A program made the translations under genes and the position numbers. Below are positions 3,675 through 40,048 of a DNA stretch of 40,048 nucleotides, piece after piece (the first letter of the stretch is position 1; the number at the start of each line of letters is the position of its first letter). This stretch comes from a virus. The notes below the pieces were generated by a model that was not told the DNA's origin, ran no database searches, and saw nothing but the letters and a program-made list of their open reading frames with translations. Location of the stretch: IMG/VR virus record IMGVR_UViG_3300028599_000001, positions 1-40,048 of that record; one strand, given 5' to 3'.

Positions 3675-3879
3675 ATTCGGCCTTCTCCTCGGCTGTCAGG
3701 CCTTCTAACAGGGCATCAGTTCCCGCTTTCTCCCGCTGTCTCGTCTTCTCTGAGGCCTTGTTTTTCTGGGCTAACCTACCGGAGCGCTTTCCAGAGAAGT
3801 ACGTCCCTATAGCCCCTAATACGAGTAAAAGCGCACCGATGGTATAGGTGTAGAGTTTACTTGACACCAGCGATAGCAT
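3637..3879 (-). CDS. i-spanin (inner-membrane spanin subunit)
   Basis: N-terminal TM (YTIGALLLVLGAIGTYF) followed by a charged helical region. Sits between the holin and o-spanin genes. Confidence 0.65.
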   Translation of the reverse strand: MLSLVSSKLYTYTIGALLLVLGAIGTYFSGKRSGRLAQKNKASEKTRQREKAGTDALLEGLTAEEKAEYEKIDPARRYFD

Positions 3880-31091: not shown

Positions 31092-31400
31092 TCCTGTAGG
31101 GGCTCTCCTTGTGGGAGCTCGACCAATTCAAATTTGGCCTGTTATCGGATATGACGATCCCGGTGGCGGTCATTACTCGCCTAGATCGGCAGCCGATATT
31201 TACAGTGGCCAGGCGCTACGCTGGCTCCGATAAGCCGCGTTACTCATCAGTCACTCTATGCGGGAGTCGAACCCGCTTCTCTAAATTCCCAGATAGCAAG
31301 TCTAGGCAATTTTAGTGCGATTCCGTTTCGCCAATAAGGTGCGTGTCTGCTTTCCACGCTGCACTGTAAACTGTATAGGCAATTATTCGATAGTAGCGAT
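31092..31400 (-). other. Roughly 300-nt non-coding, hairpin-rich leader downstream of the Q-like gene. Contains a tRNA T-arm-like hairpin (31260-31276)
   Basis: No credible ORF. Minus-strand GCGGG-TTCGACT-CCCGC. Other stem-loops include CCUAGA-CUUGCUA-UCUGGG, ATCGG-CTG-CCGAT and CCAGCG..CGCCTGG. Confidence 0.5.
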
Positions 31401-33527: not shown

Positions 33528-33853
33528 GCTCGCTTTTGTTTTATCGGTTTAGAATATCCTTTATAGATATCCCATGCCTTTTCCATCAACCAGGAATGCC
33601 AAGGAAATCCTAGGCTCCCTCTCGCTGTTTCAGCGTGATAAAGATAAGTCAGGATCGATTGCCTAATACCTCTTGGGTCTGATTTTGCTGAGTATACCCC
33701 GCGCTCTTGCATCCGCTCCTGCATAAAGTCTAATACGTCATCACGATAAATATTGATCCGGTGGCGCATAAAATAAACATACAGCCTTCGCGCTCTGCGG
33801 AATCTCTTGTTAAGAGATCGGTGTTGCTGTCTGTCTTTTTTTAGGTCAATCAT
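33524..33853 (-). CDS. Hypothetical basic protein (109 aa)
   Basis: ORF track. Coupled to neighbours. Confidence 0.5.
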   Translation of the reverse strand: MIDLKKDRQQHRSLNKRFRRARRLYVYFMRHRINIYRDDVLDFMQERMQERGVYSAKSDPRGIRQSILTYLYHAETARGSLGFPWHSWLMEKAWDIYKGYSKPIKQKRA

Positions 33854-34251
33854 TTCATTGCCCTATCCAATAACTCCAGTTCAGTAGTAAAATAGTCCTG
33901 TAGGTTTTCCAATTCGTCCAAGGTGAATTTCTTGGGTTGTCGTTTTAACTGTAAGATTCTCTCGTATTCTTCTAGTCCGATTTCCTTGATCAGTTTCATG
34001 ACAAAGACCTCGTAGTTCCCACCTCTACCAATGTTACATGACTGACACTGCGGTTTAATAATCTTGGATTCAAACAAGATAGCATTGGTTCTGCCTCCAA
34101 TCCCATGACCGGCTTGTAACTCTTTCCAGAGTTTCACTGTTCCACAGGTGTAACATTTGGCATAGCCATTTTGGTCTGCTGCGGATTGTCTGATGTACAG
34201 AGAACACAGTTTCCAGCAGTTGTCCTTGAGCTTTTTCAGTTCAGATTTCAT
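33850..34251 (-). CDS. ninG: NinG/Rap-family recombination endonuclease (133 aa)
   Basis: C..YTCG..(QAGH)..QCQSCN zinc/HNH-like pattern typical of lambda NinG. Adjacent to ninB. Confidence 0.65.
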   Translation of the reverse strand: MKSELKKLKDNCWKLCSLYIRQSAADQNGYAKCYTCGTVKLWKELQAGHGIGGRTNAILFESKIIKPQCQSCNIGRGGNYEVFVMKLIKEIGLEEYERILQLKRQPKKFTLDELENLQDYFTTELELLDRAMK

Positions 34252-34267: not shown

Positions 34268-34600
34268 TCATTGTCTAAAGTCCTCACTCCAGTTCACACC
34301 TAGATGACTGCCCCACACGTAGAGCTGTTCGATCAAGTCGGCCATCTGCATTTTATTCAGCTCTGATGTGCGCTTGATCTTGAATTTCCACTTGATTACC
34401 CCTTTCATTTCATCGGGCAGATAACCGATGTGTTTTGCTACCTCTCCCACCATTGCATGAAACTTGTCATTCTGTAGGCCTGAACGTCTGGGGCGATAGG
34501 GCCGGTAGACACACTCCATCTTGGGCTTATCCGGGGTATTCAGGATAGCCTCAGCGGCGAGAGCGCGTTGCTTCTCAGTGAAGAGAGGGTAGGTTTTCAT
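34268..34600 (-). CDS. ninB: NinB/Orf-family recombination mediator (110 aa)
   Basis: RSGLQNDKFHAMVGEVAKHIG and RTSELNKMQMADLIEQLYVWGSHLGVNWSED parallel lambda NinB RSLDQNRKLWACLGDVSRQV and STSRMRVGEFAELLELIQAFGTERGVKWSDE. Confidence 0.7.
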   Translation of the reverse strand: MKTYPLFTEKQRALAAEAILNTPDKPKMECVYRPYRPRRSGLQNDKFHAMVGEVAKHIGYLPDEMKGVIKWKFKIKRTSELNKMQMADLIEQLYVWGSHLGVNWSEDFRQ

Positions 34601-36779: not shown

Positions 36780-36851
36780 ATAACCCCCTTGAGTTATTGA
36801 ATCCCTGATCACAATAAGGAATACTCATTGGACTGACCTTGAGGGATTGGG

Positions 36852-36880
36852 TAAAAAAGACCCCAGCCACATAGCCGGGG
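36852..36880 (-). terminator. Rho-independent terminator immediately downstream of the cro-like gene (tR1-like)
   Basis: Minus strand CCCCGGCU-AUGU-GGCUGGGG (8 bp including 2 G-U pairs) followed by UCUUUUUUA. Confidence 0.65.
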
Positions 36881-36900
36881 ACAAAGGGAGGATAATCATG

Positions 36901-37119
36901 TCAGTCATAGAAAAACCTCAAAAGCTGCGTTGTCGTGAAATCACCGCGCCCTGCTTTGACCAATCCAGTGATCAGTTTCTTTTGCGGCGTCTTGCGTTTG
37001 GTCACGAGCCACAACCGGATGTATTCGTGGGTTGTGCCGGCCCGGGTAGCGAATTTCTTTCTATCGGCTAACGCTAATGAACTGTAATAACTACGAAAAT
37101 CGAATTTAGATTTAGACAT
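36901..37119 (-). CDS. Cro/YdaS-like HTH regulator (72 aa), possibly translated from a leaderless mRNA
   Basis: ..KKFATRAGTTHEYIRLWL.. HTH. Divergent from the CI-like gene. ATG lies 5 nt after the predicted -10. Confidence 0.6.
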   Translation of the reverse strand: MSKSKFDFRSYYSSLALADRKKFATRAGTTHEYIRLWLVTKRKTPQKKLITGLVKAGRGDFTTTQLLRFFYD

Positions 37120-37124
37120 GCACC

Positions 37125-37153
37125 TATGTACCATGGAGGTTCATAAATGTCAA
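37125..37153 (-). promoter_or_regulatory. PR-like promoter plus 21-bp operator (copy 2)
   Basis: Minus strand TTGACA-N17-TACATA. The spacer and -10 contain the inverted repeat TATGAACC-N5-GGTACATA. About 30 nt near-identical to 37794-37822. Confidence 0.6.
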
Positions 37154-37587
37154 TAGCAGGACAATATTGGGGAATACCCATGGAGGAAACAAAGGATTAT
37201 GCTCGCGCTCCCATGGATATAGCAGAAATAAGACGAAAAAATCTCATGTATCTTATCCAAACAGAATATGACGGCATTGCCCGTCAGTTTGGACTCGACG
37301 CTGAACTAGACCCTAGCTACGTCTCCCGTCTGTTTACCGATAAGCCAGCCTCTAGGCGTACTGTGGGCAGCAAACTCGCTCGCAAGATAGAAACTGCCAT
37401 TGGTAAGCCGAAAGGCTGGCTTGATAGTCCTCAGTGGGTGACAGAGCATGATGAAGACACGCTCTTGGTTAGTATTATTCAGGCTGTTGAAAACTCCACT
37501 AAAGACGTGGAATTAACCTCCGAGAAGAAAGCAGAATTGATCGCATCGTTGTATAAGTTGATCAGCAAGAAACGCCCCACTTCATAA
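37147..37587 (+). CDS. CI-like repressor (146 aa, no S24 peptidase domain)
   Basis: GGAGG 7 nt upstream of the ATG. ..PSYVSRLFTDKPASRRTVGSKLARKIETAIGKPKGWLD.. is a typical phage-repressor HTH region. Divergent from cro-like. Confidence 0.6.
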   Translation: MSIAGQYWGIPMEETKDYARAPMDIAEIRRKNLMYLIQTEYDGIARQFGLDAELDPSYVSRLFTDKPASRRTVGSKLARKIETAIGKPKGWLDSPQWVTEHDEDTLLVSIIQAVENSTKDVELTSEKKAELIASLYKLISKKRPTS

Positions 37588-37708
37588 CGACAAGCGCTGT
37601 CAGTACGGAAATTAGCGCATAACGCAGTAATTCACCCCACCGTAGAAATTCTGCCTTTTTTTTACCCTCCTTGATAATTTCTTCTACTTCCTTTTTTACG
37701 TCTTCCAC
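37562..37708 (-). CDS. Small tail-anchored membrane peptide (48 aa, GTG start, not in the track)
   Basis: AAAGGAGGAG 6 nt upstream of the GTG. MEDVKKEVEEIIKEGKKKAEFLRWGELLRYALISVLTALVVMKWGVSC. Its 3' end overlaps the CI-like gene by 26 nt (convergent). Confidence 0.5.
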   Translation of the reverse strand: MEDVKKEVEEIIKEGKKKAEFLRWGELLRYALISVLTALVVMKWGVSC

Positions 37709-37779
37709 TATCGGCTCCTCCTTTCGTGGCTCAAATTATTACCATATGCCCATAATTTGATTTGCGCAAGTATAAAATA

Positions 37780-37822
37780 TTGACAAAAGGATATTGACAG
37801 ATATGAACCTCTGTGGTACATA
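37780..37822 (+). promoter_or_regulatory. PL-like promoter plus 21-bp operator (copy 1), with a second upstream ATATTGACA
   Basis: TTGACA (37794-37799)-N17-TACATA (37817-37822) with TGG (a TGn extended -10) directly upstream. Operator TATGAACC-TCTGT-GGTACATA at 37802-37822. Extra TTGACA at 37780-37785. Confidence 0.6.
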
Positions 37823-37828
37823 TAGGGG

Positions 37829-38235
37829 TAGTGATGGTGATTTGTAGTTCCTGGCCTGGCGTTAAAGGCGAGAGTCAGCGCGGTAATCACCATCACTAGC
37901 GTGAACCGGTGGTGGAAGGCCCGAACGTAGCAGGCGATCAGCCCCAGTGGATTCACTCTCTCGACAGTTACGGACTTCGGAGACGCTCCGAGAGAGTTCC
38001 TGCAAGACTGGATCCAGGCAACTGGCCACCATCGGGGATCGCCCAGTTTATATAAGTGCCCGCCCCTCAACTGAACAGGGGCCAATCTGACAAAAGGGGG
38101 TGATCGAAATGCGAGGCGATTTACCGAAAGGCCTCTGGCAGTGAAAGAATTTATGACACAACCCGGTATCAAGTGGTGTGCAAACCTTTAATCGATGATG
38201 AGAATCGATAATGGGATACCGGGGGGTGTCACCCC
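37829..38235 (+). ncRNA. Roughly 400-nt GC-rich, highly structured non-coding RNA / 5' leader of the early-left operon
   Basis: No plus-strand ORF of 60 aa or more between 37588 and 38246. Perfect 14-bp helix 37829-37842/37885-37898, 9-bp helix 37955-37963/37989-37997, long-range helix 37933-37939/38037-38043, hairpins 38062-38082 and 38221-38235. Confidence 0.6.
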
Positions 38236-38249
38236 TATAGGAGAGAGTG

Positions 38250-38465
38250 ATGAACATGAATGATTTGATGGATCGCGGTAACAAGCTTGCGGAGAAATAT
38301 TCGGTTGATGAGCTTAAGAGTGCATTAAAGGATGCCCTTGCCATTGATGATAATGACGAAAGACTATCATTGCAATGGGCATTAAAGCAAAAAACTGGGA
38401 CCAAGGATGGGTATGCTTTTACTAAAGAGCAAGAAAGTAATCTAAATAAGAAACTTTCTATATAG
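38250..38465 (+). CDS. Hypothetical protein (71 aa)
   Basis: TATAGGAGAGAGTGATG initiation cassette. Confidence 0.55.
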   Translation: MNMNDLMDRGNKLAEKYSVDELKSALKDALAIDDNDERLSLQWALKQKTGTKDGYAFTKEQESNLNKKLSI

Positions 38466-38474
38466 GAGAGAGTG

Positions 38475-38771
38475 ATGGATTTAGGCAGCGCAATAAAATT
38501 ATGCCGCATAAGCCATAATATGAAGCAGGCACAGCTTGGTGAAATTGCTGATTGCGATGTTGCCTCTATCTCCCTAATCGAATGCAATAAACGTGACCCC
38601 AGTCTTTCTATGCTTATCAGTATTTCTAAAGCATTGGAAATGCCATTGAGTCTTTTGATATTCCTTGCATCCGATGAAACAGACCTAGCAGAAATTGATA
38701 AAGACACGATTGAGAAATTATCGTTTTCTGCCTTGAGATTAATAAAGCGAGGATCTGACCATGGACCCTAA
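38475..38771 (+). CDS. XRE-family HTH regulator (98 aa)
   Basis: Same TATAGGAGAGAGTGATG cassette. ..KQAQLGEIADCDVASISLIECNKRDPSLSMLISISKAL.. Confidence 0.65.
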   Translation: MDLGSAIKLCRISHNMKQAQLGEIADCDVASISLIECNKRDPSLSMLISISKALEMPLSLLIFLASDETDLAEIDKDTIEKLSFSALRLIKRGSDHGP

Positions 38772-39111
38772 CCAACAAGCCGCCTGTGATTACGATCTGT
38801 TGTCGCAAAAGGCCAGGCGCATCGCTGAGGAAGTCGCGGAACGTGCTGATGACCGTTTCCAATTCTTGGACAACCAAGATCTGGAAAGGGCGGCCAAGAA
38901 CGCCACAGTCATTACAGCACTCGGGCTGCGAAAGGCGATCCTTGAAATGAAAGCCGCCGAGAAAAGACACGATCCTGATGCCATGAGGCAAGCACAAATA
39001 GACCTTGCGCGTCTCGTGGTGGCGATGTTTTTCAGTTATTACGCTGAGGACGAGGAAGACTCAGTATTGCAGCATCCTCTCTTTGCTGGGCCAACACAAA
39101 CACCGGGGTGA
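38761..39111 (+). CDS. Hypothetical helical protein (116 aa)
   Basis: ORF track. 11-nt overlap with the XRE gene. Confidence 0.5.
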   Translation: MDPNQQAACDYDLLSQKARRIAEEVAERADDRFQFLDNQDLERAAKNATVITALGLRKAILEMKAAEKRHDPDAMRQAQIDLARLVVAMFFSYYAEDEEDSVLQHPLFAGPTQTPG

Positions 39112-39118
39112 GATAATT

Positions 39119-39319
39119 ATGTTTGTAGTTTTCATACTCACAAAAGAAATAGAAATATCTGTAGGTGGGGCAGTGCCAGAAACAACTGTAACTGTTCCAC
39201 TAAGATACGGTGACGGAATGATTGGCGCTCTACCAGTCTTTGAAACATTAGAGCAAGCAGAAGCTTACTCAGAGGGGAAATATCAGATCGAGGAAATACA
39301 AGCCGTATATCCAATTTGA
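39119..39319 (+). CDS. Hypothetical protein (66 aa)
   Basis: GGGGTGAG upstream of ATG 39119. The track ORF 39005-39319 extends upstream into the previous gene. Confidence 0.5.
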   Translation: MFVVFILTKEIEISVGGAVPETTVTVPLRYGDGMIGALPVFETLEQAEAYSEGKYQIEEIQAVYPI

Positions 39320-39336
39320 GATTATCGGAGGCACCA

Positions 39337-39504
39337 TGACCTACACCCAGCACTGCCGGCACTGGTTACTCAGCCAACACATTGACTGCTTGGCAAGAAA
39401 GGTCAGGCGCGCCCAGAAACGGAATGACAGGAAAGCACAGGAAGCGGCACAGCAAGACTATGCCGACAGACAGAGACAGTTATTGCATATGAGGCAAGAG
39501 TGAT
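39337..39504 (+). CDS. Hypothetical basic protein (55 aa, below the track cutoff)
   Basis: GGAGG upstream. MTYTQHCRHWLLSQHIDCLARKVRRAQKRNDRKAQEAAQQDYADRQRQLLHMRQE. Confidence 0.4.
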
Positions 39505-39832
39505 GACAGACATGAAATATAATATTTCATATAGAGAAGCAATGGAGCTTTACAAAAAGTATCCCAAAAAGGGTGGCAATTTATATGAAGAGCGCGATAT
39601 TGATGGGCAAGGCCAGTTTTATACTGACCATGTTATGGCTATGACCTCAGAAGACTTACGGTCGAAGTCGATGATAGCGGCAGAACTCGCTTATAGAGAT
39701 ATTGTTATTGCTCAAGCGTTTGATGACGTAGAAACCTTCTATAAGGAAGCCGAACGATTGAAAAACAAAGTTGAAGAACTGGCAATGGAGCTGGCCCAGG
39801 CCCAGAAAATTGCCTTGGATGGACCACAGTGA
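39503..39832 (+). CDS. Hypothetical protein (109 aa)
   Basis: ATG overlaps the preceding stop (GTGATG). ORF track. Confidence 0.5.
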   Translation: MTDMKYNISYREAMELYKKYPKKGGNLYEERDIDGQGQFYTDHVMAMTSEDLRSKSMIAAELAYRDIVIAQAFDDVETFYKEAERLKNKVEELAMELAQAQKIALDGPQ

Positions 39833-39843
39833 ACAATAACGCA

Positions 39844-39862
39844 CCCCGCCCTAGTGGCGGGG
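39844..39862 (+). other. GC-rich hairpin between early genes (attenuator/processing-site candidate)
   Basis: CCCCGCC-CTAGT-GGCGGGG, 7-bp perfect stem, no U-tract after it. Confidence 0.4.
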
Positions 39863-39892
39863 CATAACAAGGGGTAAAACAGGAGAGAATCT

Positions 39893-40048
39893 ATGTTCAA
39901 TAAGCCAATTCTTAGTACCGACCTAAAGCACCCAGGCGTATTACGCCGTGATCTGAACACCCTTGGTCATGAAAATAAGTATCTATCTGATCGAGTTACT
40001 GTGCTGGAAAAGCAGCTCAAATTATTATTGGTGCATCTTTCACTGGAA
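39893..40048 (+). CDS. 5' part of a junction-spanning small ORF (71 aa once circularised, continues as 128-184)
   Basis: AGGAG 7 nt upstream of ATG 39893. The frame runs through the repeat and stops at TAA 182-184. Confidence 0.5.
   Translation, partial: MFNKPILSTDLKHPGVLRRDLNTLGHENKYLSDRVTVLEKQLKLLLVHLSLE
39922..40048. repeat. Second copy of the 127-nt terminal repeat
   Basis: Identical to 1-127. Confidence 0.97.

Follow-up and report, generated by a model that had tools for sequence, protein, structure and literature searches.

A modular early-left leader in a metagenome-derived temperate phage carries a candidate exchangeable RNA domain

The early leaders of temperate phages are classic regulatory hubs that carry nut sites, put sites and RNase III sites. 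The lambda N leader spans about 220 nucleotides (nt), with nutL and an RNase III-sensitive hairpin before the N ribosome-binding site, and DicF is an example of a small RNA (sRNA) processed from a prophage immunity-region transcript. Here, we describe the early-left leader of a temperate phage whose metagenome-derived genome of ~40 kb (overall GC 0.48) was analysed at its full length of 40,048 nt (IMG/VR record IMGVR_UViG_3300028599_000001, positions 1 to 40,048; hereafter the window). The leader comprises ~420 nt between a repressor-controlled, PL-type early-left promoter and the first open reading frame (ORF), which starts at 38250, and it encloses a domain of ~130 nt that we term D2. Among described PL leaders, putL of phage HK022 is a structured RNA of ~70 nt that starts within 3 nt of the PL transcript start, and put RNAs come as a similar pair, putL and putR (PMC9378689). 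For Y RNAs, which fill the same position in a relative of this phage, a bacterial motif, GNCGAAN0-1G, has been described (PMC4201824).

We favour, at a probability of about 0.5, the reading that the segment is a structured mRNA leader of the PL operon, composed of separately exchangeable modules and carrying D2 as an exchangeable non-coding RNA (ncRNA) cargo domain. The anatomy of the leader is much more certain than its function. Its parts are as follows.

37792-37822, plus strand: PL-type early-left promoter with operator, read from the sequence
37829-37898, plus strand: H1, a hairpin of 70 nt with a perfect basal stem of 14 bp and a variable apical arm
37906-38035, plus strand: D2, a four-way-junction domain of ~130 nt with a homolog in the viral contig L018
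38037-38044 (GAUCGCCC) with 38098-38105 (GGGUGAUC), plus strand: linker helix enclosing P1, taken from the minimum-energy fold of the whole leader
38062-38082, plus strand: P1 hairpin, GCCCCU/AGGGGC
38113-38135, plus strand: P2 hairpin, GAGGC/GCCUC, predicted in the window and in the related contig L001
38154-38231, plus strand: P3, a three-way junction and inverted repeat with 17-nt basal arms (38154-38170 and 38215-38231) and two apical hairpins
38236-38252, plus strand: translation-initiation cassette TATAGGAGAGAGTGATG, with the ATG of the first ORF at 38250 (the gene is called from 38250 in L002, a contig identical to the window)

The strongest evidence came from D2. A 22-mer from its interior matched one viral contig, L018 (IMGVR_UViG_3300010382_000025; 68 kb; ~60% GC), in which the homolog occupies 1413-1545; the window and 14.5 kb of L018 had no common protein and no further common DNA. 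A core of 37 nt, GGCCCGAACGUAGCAGGCGAUCAGCCCC(A/G)GUGGAUUC, was identical at 36 of its 37 positions, a second segment, UCCUGCAAGAC(U/C)GGA, was likewise common to the two, and the core overall can be written GGCCCGAACGUAGCAGGCGAUCAGCCCCRGUGGAUUC ... UCCUGCAAGACYGGA. The helices around this core compared as follows.

37906-37915 with 38026-38035: closing helix of D2, CCGGUGGUGG/CCACCAUCGG in the window and CGUGUGGCUG/CAGCCACACG in L018, 10/10 paired in both, with four two-sided changes
37918-37943: H2a hairpin, invariant
37944-38011: H2b arm, with an outer helix (CCAGU/ACUGG in the window, CCGGU/ACCGG in L018, an A-U to G-C change), a UUC bulge, a UGCAAG loop and a variable 9-bp apical hairpin at 37955-37997 (9 bp and a 25-nt apex in the window; 6 bp, CCCGUU/GACGGG, and a tetraloop in L018)
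38014-38025: H2c hairpin, CCAG-GCAA-CUGG in the window and GCCGG-UAUCAAGC-CCGGC in L018

Folded independently, L018 D2 adopted the same four-way junction as its minimum-energy structure (z = -4.56), with a closing helix that can be extended to 14 bp and further to about 20 bp. When the non-conserved segments of L018 were shuffled in place, all three helices survived in 3 of 1000 shuffles (p ~0.003), and the native energy lay 3.9 standard deviations under the shuffle mean. As is expected of a conserved structured RNA, the helices were kept by compensatory change. An earlier note on this DNA had named a lack of covariation as a point that would tell against its helices; the compensatory changes between D2 and L018 supply such support, from two sequences only, which is weak by R-scape standards. 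The minus strand of L018 D2 folded more weakly (z = -2.81 vs -4.56), and this, together with G.U pairs in both closing helices, assigned the D2 RNA to the plus strand. The GC content of D2 (0.60) resembled that of L018-like genomes and was unlike that of the window phage (0.48). D2 is thus probably, as judged from the sequences, a real RNA, which also occurs in an unrelated phage.

The context of D2 in L018 differed from a leader: it lay ~70 nt past the stop codon of an 81-aa (amino acid) ORF, not beside a gene start. There it heads an ORF-poor, GC-rich stretch of ~0.9 kb (1342-2274) that ends in an 11-bp terminator hairpin (2246-2274) and may represent a 3' untranslated region or a lengthy non-coding transcript. 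Folding z was negative in other parts of this stretch as well (1701-1950 and 2001-2150). Rfam searches of L018 900-2800 returned only two chance-level matches (E 1.4 and 4.4), far under gathering score, and BLAST of L018 1342-2400 against phages found no homolog. To detect D2 homologs wrongly annotated as ORFs, the D2 reading frame was searched with HMMER against 1.84 billion proteins, and the sole match was a repeat protein of no relevance; the D2 core sequence gave nothing in the literature searched.

The leader as a whole had the layout of a structured mRNA 5' leader, in that the predicted promoter (37794-37822) and the first ORF (38250) lie on the same strand with no intervening terminator-like site. 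The promoter consists of a -35 element (TTGACA, 37794-37799), a 17-nt spacer, a TGG at 37814-37816 (extended -10) and a -10 element (TACATA, 37817-37822), with a predicted +1 at ~37828-37830. An inverted copy of it (31 nt, 87%) lies at 37125-37155, before the divergent cro-like gene. Because such an inverted operator copy is the shared-operator layout of PL and PR, the label of immunity-type promoter that the earlier note had given to this TTGACA-N17-TACATA element with TGG was justified, and the promoter itself was as described. It was kept in three related contigs (L001, L007 and L008). Terminator-like sites on the plus strand were absent from 36800-40048, with one weak site near 3738, and the leader was without any run of at least 4 T.

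The segment was also non-coding by the measures applied. No plus-strand ORF of at least 60 aa was present in 37588-38246, which confirmed an earlier statement to that effect. A minus-strand ORF of 154 aa, whose conservation had been named beforehand as the case that would overturn the non-coding reading, was broken up in L001, and gene calling passed over it in L002, the contig identical to the window; it was thus ruled out as a gene, and refutation by a conserved ORF does not apply. Small arginine-rich plus-strand ORFs within D2 were considered as an N-like protein and rejected, since a Shine-Dalgarno sequence was lacking, no family matched and the sequence in L001 is unrelated. Rfam 15 gave no match at gathering score in the whole window, and at E up to 10 (37500-38400) only a spurious TeloSII match outside the RNA, so that the earlier impression of a leader with no recognisable family was borne out.

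Thermodynamically, 415 nt of the plus strand folded at -164.9 kcal/mol (z = -4.86), compared to z = -2.45 for the minus strand. By region, z was -5.9 for H1 (37828-37899), -5.9 for P3, -2.0 for D2 (37906-38034) and -0.22 for 38056-38150, and the interior of D2 without its closing helix reached only -0.05. Since z was concentrated in a few regions, thermodynamics alone flags three long inverted repeats, not an ornate fold of 400 nt. Of the ornate structured RNA proposed previously, the structure of the plus strand was upheld, whereas the excess stability turned out to sit in H1 and P3. The description of a GC-rich segment in AT-rich flanks agreed with our values (0.60 for D2 vs 0.38 for the flanks).

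Four of the five helices listed in the earlier note were perfect complements (37829-37842/37885-37898, 37955-37963/37989-37997, 37933-37939/38037-38043 and 38062-38082), and not all of them could be kept as drawn. The 9-bp stem 37955-37963/37989-37997 is real according to the L018 comparison, but it forms the variable tip of arm H2b, within an interior of z = -0.05. The long-range closing helix ggcgatc/gatcgcc was wrong: its strand GGCGAUC belongs to the invariant local hairpin H2a, a GAUCGCC partner is missing downstream in L018, and the domain is instead closed by 37906-37915/38026-38035. The fifth, a hairpin abutting the first ribosome-binding site (38221-38235), was imperfect and is better read as the 3' arm of P3, which was itself absent from that list. 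A single RNA of ~400 nt did not survive comparison either: the D2 interior, the H1 apex and the P3 apex were all replaced in L001, and the leader is continuous with the mRNA.

The two modules with the most negative z, H1 and P3, lie on either side of D2. The basal stem of H1 (AGUGAUGG/CCAUCACU) starts 0-3 nt from the predicted +1 and was kept in the window, L001 and L008, with one A-U to G.U change in L001, while its apex (25-55 nt) was unrelated between lineages; the apex formed a single arm in the window and L001 and two enclosed arms in L008. H1 nevertheless kept similar z-scores in all three (-5.93 in the window, -4.99 in L001 and -4.88 in L008). An apparent homology of window H1 to a YrlA-like RNA of L007 was not significant. 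P3, which ends 7 nt upstream of the ribosome-binding site, had identical basal arms in the window and L001 and the same topology in both despite a non-homologous apex of 45-50 nt (z = -5.89 and -4.85, respectively).

Between D2 and P3, both strands of the linker helix were kept in L001, with a C-G to U.G change, and a P1-like GCCCC-loop-GGGGC hairpin also occurred in L001 and L008 with different loops. The stretch 38056-38150 alone was not significantly structured, and the sequence of P2 was identical in the window and L001, which left no covariation by which to judge P2. Overall, the 3' module (38056-38254) was 83-92% identical to that of L001. The 17-nt cassette TATAGGAGAGAGTGATG recurred exactly at 38461-38477 and so precedes two consecutive ORFs, and the same 15-mer precedes an unrelated first ORF in L001 (4301-4315); it may serve either as a linker for recombination or as a translational operator that these ORFs share. 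In the 5' arm of P3 begins a short upstream ORF (AUGACACAACCC...), with 12 codons in the window (38152-38190) and, in L001 (4212-4313), 33 codons ending in a UGAUG that overlaps the next start codon. This layout could indicate translational coupling through P3.

Relatives were identified as contigs with a gene for the cI-like protein or a homolog of it, and their PL-proximal slots compared with that of the window as follows.

L002: identical to the window; leader the same
L001, L003 and L004 (the same contig as L011): identical cI (100%); 1.48 kb of the immunity region match at 97%, the rest being mosaic; modules kept, interiors replaced
L007: cI 88% identical; Y RNAs and an Rsr-like gene
L008: cI 57% identical; compact leader of ~100 nt
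L009: cI 67% identical; contig stops at the promoter

In L001, the closing helix of D2 (CCGGUGG/CCACCGG) and the adjoining GGGAUCGYCC were kept around a non-homologous interior of ~100 nt, and a 70-aa ORF cassette was inserted between D2 and P1. L001 D2 was accordingly rejected as a member of the D2 family, its core being unmatched even with 6 mismatches allowed. The leader of L008 consisted of a single junction inside an H1-type stem, with a P1-like GCCCC-UUCG-GGGGC hairpin, directly before the ribosome-binding site. Separately, L008 was found to carry ~6 tandem 9-bp repeats (GGGACTYGY; 2585-2650) after its first PL-operon ORF, which are iteron-like and could mark an origin.

In L007, everything past +1 was replaced (928-1483) by three Y-type RNAs at 936-1063, 1073-1151 and 1161-1223, and window and L007 had no significant similarity past +1. 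The first of these RNAs contains a permuted tRNA-like domain and matched Rfam YrlA (E = 4.7e-4), and the ORF that follows the Y RNAs has an N-terminus ~60% identical to phage proteins with TROVE and Ro60 vWA domains. By position, this Y-RNA/Ro60 cassette is the first thing transcribed from the immunity-controlled promoter. The same slot thus held D2 in the window, an altered D2 interior and a 70-aa ORF in L001, and three Y RNAs with a Ro60/Rsr-like gene in L007.

Searches for further copies of the leader were largely negative. With 37780-38260 as query, BLAST returned no homolog from the phages of INPHARED, the plasmids of PLSDB or any complete E. coli genome, nor did megablast of 20 kb of the window. 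No leader homolog was found by a protein-anchored search of viral contigs (cI-like and 72-aa ORFs), by exact-pattern scans of viral contigs besides the L018 match, or by scans of reference genomes, and a metagenome pattern scan returned only a contig that was already known. Reference genomes searched with the cI alignment yielded two unrelated loci, in metagenome-assembled genomes; the conserved 48-aa ORF of the immunity region, used as a search handle, yielded only 2 clusters; and homologs of the 72-aa first ORF in other phages did not have this leader beside them. The phage lineage is rare.

Taken together, these comparisons suggest the following sequence of events. A PL-type transcript would start at ~37828-37830 and run without a terminator into the ORF at 38250. 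H1 would pair the first nucleotides of this transcript in its 14-bp stem, and may thereby protect the 5' end from 5'-end-dependent decay and stabilise the transcript. By analogy with the lambda N leader, the long helices of P3, and possibly of H1, may either shape the structural context of the ribosome-binding site or be RNase III cleavage sites. D2 would be a cargo ncRNA domain, a moron-like accessory insert without a core role, which would be highly expressed once repression lifts and whose invariant hairpin and junction may bind a conserved partner, either protein or RNA. As D2 in L018 has no adjacent gene start, it does not appear to be a cis switch on a downstream gene. The boundaries of the modules are supported by L001/L011, in which the immunity region is 97% identical to that of the window and yet the H1 apex, the D2 interior and the P3 apex were replaced and an ORF cassette was inserted.

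Several points weigh against a modular leader with ncRNA cargo. The +1, processing and a discrete D2-containing RNA are predictions from sequence alone; RNase III cleavage and 5'-end protection rest on analogy; and the covariation in D2, from two sequences, is thin and beyond R-scape testing. The interior of D2 alone is thermodynamically ordinary (z = -0.05). The identity of the basal stems could reflect recent ancestry together with recombination between short sequences in common, a frequent event in this phage group, and the complementarity of D2 37953-37962 to both downstream ribosome-binding sites makes a cis-regulatory role possible.

A more far-reaching proposal, which we regard as tentative, is that D2 is the founding member of an undescribed class of trans-acting phage ncRNAs, a cassette exchanged between unrelated phages and placed on the first early transcript, where it would capture a host RNA-binding protein or defence component. 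In a sister phage the slot of D2 holds Y RNAs and Ro60, so that D2 may act on the same pathway of RNA surveillance or repair. The earlier suggestion of a decoy or new ncRNA may apply to D2; it did not hold for the whole segment, which is a chain of exchanged modules.

A cis-regulatory aptamer is an unlikely explanation of D2. Under this proposal, a ligand decides whether UCACUCUCUC (37953-37962) pairs within D2 or with the GAGAGAGUGA ribosome-binding sites of the first two ORFs, to both of which it is a perfect 10-nt complement. An invariant core with variable peripheral helices is usual for aptamers, the partner strand of the 9-bp stem (GAGAGAGU) mimics a ribosome-binding site, and an alternative 7-bp pairing of the H1 3' strand with the D2 5' strand can be read from the sequence. 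However, no part of D2 is less conserved than this 9-bp stem, an anti-Shine-Dalgarno sequence is missing there from L018 and UCACUCUCUC is also absent from L001, while about one perfect 10-nt inverted match is expected by chance in 1.7 kb and one such match was seen. In L018, moreover, D2 is locked by a helix of 14 bp (to ~20 bp) and followed by ~800 nt of untranslated sequence with no gene start, and no Rfam riboswitch matched.

It is also improbable that the structure is largely a by-product, the leader being then pieced together from scars of recombination and from GC-rich inserts, without any role at the RNA level other than that of a 5' untranslated region. Mosaicism is indeed pronounced in this phage group, and short junction sequences are conserved at many places; neither the D2 interior nor any of the replaced apices outdoes shuffled sequence in folding (z from -0.05 to -1.5), and for L008 a leader of ~100 nt is enough. 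This explanation does not readily accommodate a core that is 36/37 identical between phages of 48% and 60% GC and whose non-homologous flanks keep the same three helices, or the z of about -5 to -6 that H1 and P3 show in every lineage that has them.

Processive antitermination was assessed in two forms. In the first, H1 would be a put-like cis-acting RNA that binds RNA polymerase as it emerges, an option we consider quite improbable. The size and position of H1 are those of putL, and no member of the N family was recognised by PHROGs or Pfam among the PL-operon ORFs, in agreement with the earlier remark that there is no N-like protein. Some antitermination is plausible given the tR1-like terminator 20 nt past the cro-like gene. 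Against this, no second copy of H1, D2 or the 3' module was present in the 40-kb window (only chance 8-11-mers), so that a putR-like partner behind the rightward promoter is missing; H1 is one long hairpin, in contrast to the two stem-loops of put; the plus strand of 36800-40048, as noted above, offers no terminator to override; and the H1 apex was freely replaced between lineages. The put-like antiterminator put forward in the earlier note accordingly found little backing. In the second form, a nut-like reading was not supported: the leader has no GCTCTT and thus no boxA (CGCUCUUA-like), there is no second copy, no N-family protein matched, and P1 is the only GCCCC..GGGGC hairpin in the window, which leaves no second boxB-like hairpin.

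The Y RNAs in the L007 slot made a Y-RNA reading of D2 worth testing, and this reading now appears very unlikely. It would make D2 a divergent Y-RNA-like molecule that binds host Ro60/Rsr, its invariant hairpin carrying GGCCCGAACGU, which is near the GGUCCGA(AGGU) contacted by Ro60. In its favour, a sister phage with the same promoter has three Y RNAs and an Rsr-like gene here, the start of D2 (CCGGUGGUGGAAG) can be set beside CCGGUGGUGAAGA in Y3 of L007, and GGCCCGA is one base off the vertebrate Ro60 contact motif. To examine it, a rule-based finder was used whose Rsr-binding module has a terminal and a second stem, the 5' motif GNCGAAN0-1G (which reads UGGUGAAG in these phages) and the 3' motif ..UUCC. 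This finder recovered 7/7 clear Y RNAs (3 in L007 and 4 in a further contig, L010) and none in the window, L001, L008 or L011. Only the 5' motif was approximated in D2 (UGGUGGAAG at 37910); the 3' motif (..GUUCC and stem) and the UUACUUC loop were absent, and GG[CT]CCGAA occurs by chance elsewhere in the window. The YrlA model (RF02553) did not match the window at E up to 10, whereas it matched L007 (E = 4.7e-4) and L010 (E = 7e-10), and ARAGORN found no tRNA-like gene in the leader. With full phage Rsr as a query, tblastn detected no rsr gene in the window (best E = 0.3) or the examined part of L018 (best E = 0.12), and the dissimilarity of window and L007 past +1 also speaks against a Y-RNA reading.

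Finally, an RNA primer of a replication origin resembling ColE1 RNA II, as the earlier note had also entertained, is scarcely credible: it would explain the lack of a recognisable initiator or helicase loader and would suit a GC-rich segment between AT-rich flanks, but nothing supports it, as neither strand gave an Rfam RNAI/RNAII-type match, the segment has no iterons or tandem repeats, a GATC cluster considered as an origin mark was discarded (GATC is not enriched), the segment is swapped for unrelated cargo in sister phages with the same flanks, and an initiator may simply be unrecognised among the many ORFs without assigned function.

The surrounding genome encodes a P22-type portal and a Terminase_3 large terminase subunit; no sequenced phage has a portal more than 42% identical to this one. 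The leader belongs to a lambda-like immunity region at 36.9-38.3 kb, whose other genes are listed below.

36901-37134, minus strand: cro-like gene
37147-37587, plus strand: cI-like repressor gene, matching PHROG transcriptional regulator/repressor families
37562-37708, minus strand: 48-aa ORF with a strong Shine-Dalgarno sequence (AAAGGAGGAG)

The 48-aa ORF lies opposite the cI-like 3' end and overlaps it, has a charged N-terminus and a hydrophobic C-terminus, and encodes a protein conserved in L007, L008 and L009 (54-94% identity); it may be a small membrane protein made in the lysogen, such as an exclusion factor or toxin. Downstream of the leader, a row of small plus-strand ORFs begins at 38250. 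One of the PL-operon ORFs (39336-39503, 55 aa) contains an arginine-rich stretch, ARKVRRAQKRNDRKAQEAAQ, reminiscent of N-type arginine-rich motifs, and its sole match was a PHROG family of unknown function. On the minus strand, a strong terminator-like hairpin at 36861-36880 (8 bp, 6 of them G-C, and a T-run) lies 20 nt past the cro-like gene, which is the position of lambda tR1. No counterpart of nut, put or N was found to accompany it.

Among the ORFs that were compared with PHROGs and Pfam, none could be recognised as a replication initiator, helicase loader or integrase, in line with what had been said previously of the initiator. The only matches in this respect were a DnaQ-like exonuclease (815-1495), NinB (34268-34600), NinG (33850-34251) and HNH-type proteins. 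ARAGORN also reported a tRNA-like gene of 92 nt on the minus strand (31250-31341), with a four-base anticodon (gcct) and no amino acid assigned.

As such, long structured leaders downstream of PL are known. What is new here is D2, a candidate RNA family absent from Rfam 15 and the literature searched, and a PL-proximal slot that alternates between D2, another insert and a Y-RNA/Ro60 cassette. With two sequences and a predicted function, D2 is a promising lead, not a discovery. If our reading is correct, phages whose immunity regions are nearly identical exchange RNA cargo in the first few hundred nucleotides after PL, and the strict conservation of the D2 core across very different GC contents would point to a conserved cellular partner. 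If D2 is a decoy or scaffold, it would join the short list of phage RNAs that act directly on host RNA machinery (Y RNAs, tRNA mimics and anti-defence RNAs), and the early interaction of phage and host could prove to have an additional layer. Without such a role for D2, the locus is a caution, as a strongly negative z-score over 400 nt arose from three long inverted repeats and not from one ornate RNA.

Compared to HK022 putL, H1 has the same length of ~70 nt and likewise begins at +1 to +3 of the PL transcript (predicted here), and both phages are without a recognisable N. The put RNA, however, is formed by two adjacent stem-loops (stems I and II, V-shaped), overrides terminators further along its operon through the beta' zinc-binding domain of RNA polymerase and has a homologous putR, whereas H1 is one long hairpin with no second copy and a non-conserved apex and, unlike in the put setting, no terminators are predicted downstream in the scanned part of the operon. 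The lambda N leader is similar in being a long untranslated leader that runs from a repressor-controlled PL to the first early-left gene, with a large hairpin just upstream of the ribosome-binding site and a divergent-operator layout of PL and PR. It differs in that the window leader is about twice as long, has no boxA/boxB pair, nutR-like copy or recognised N-family protein, and contains an autonomous four-way junction that is also found outside any leader (L018). With YrlA (RF02553) and other Y RNAs, D2 shares the PL-proximal slot of L007, a modular build with a stem that pairs the 5' and 3' ends, and short motif resemblances (CCGGUGGUGGAAG; GGCCCGAA vs the Ro60 contact motif GGUCCGA), but it is without the 3' strand motif, the UUACUUC loop, the tRNA-like domain and a nearby rsr. 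In contrast to morons and DicF-type cargo, D2 lacks its own promoter or terminator and is a four-way junction of 130 nt, not a short Hfq-type sRNA. Like morons and other ncRNA cargo, it appears as a horizontally exchanged insert of atypical GC content that directly follows a strong phage promoter and that occurs in some, but not in others, of a group of phages otherwise nearly identical.

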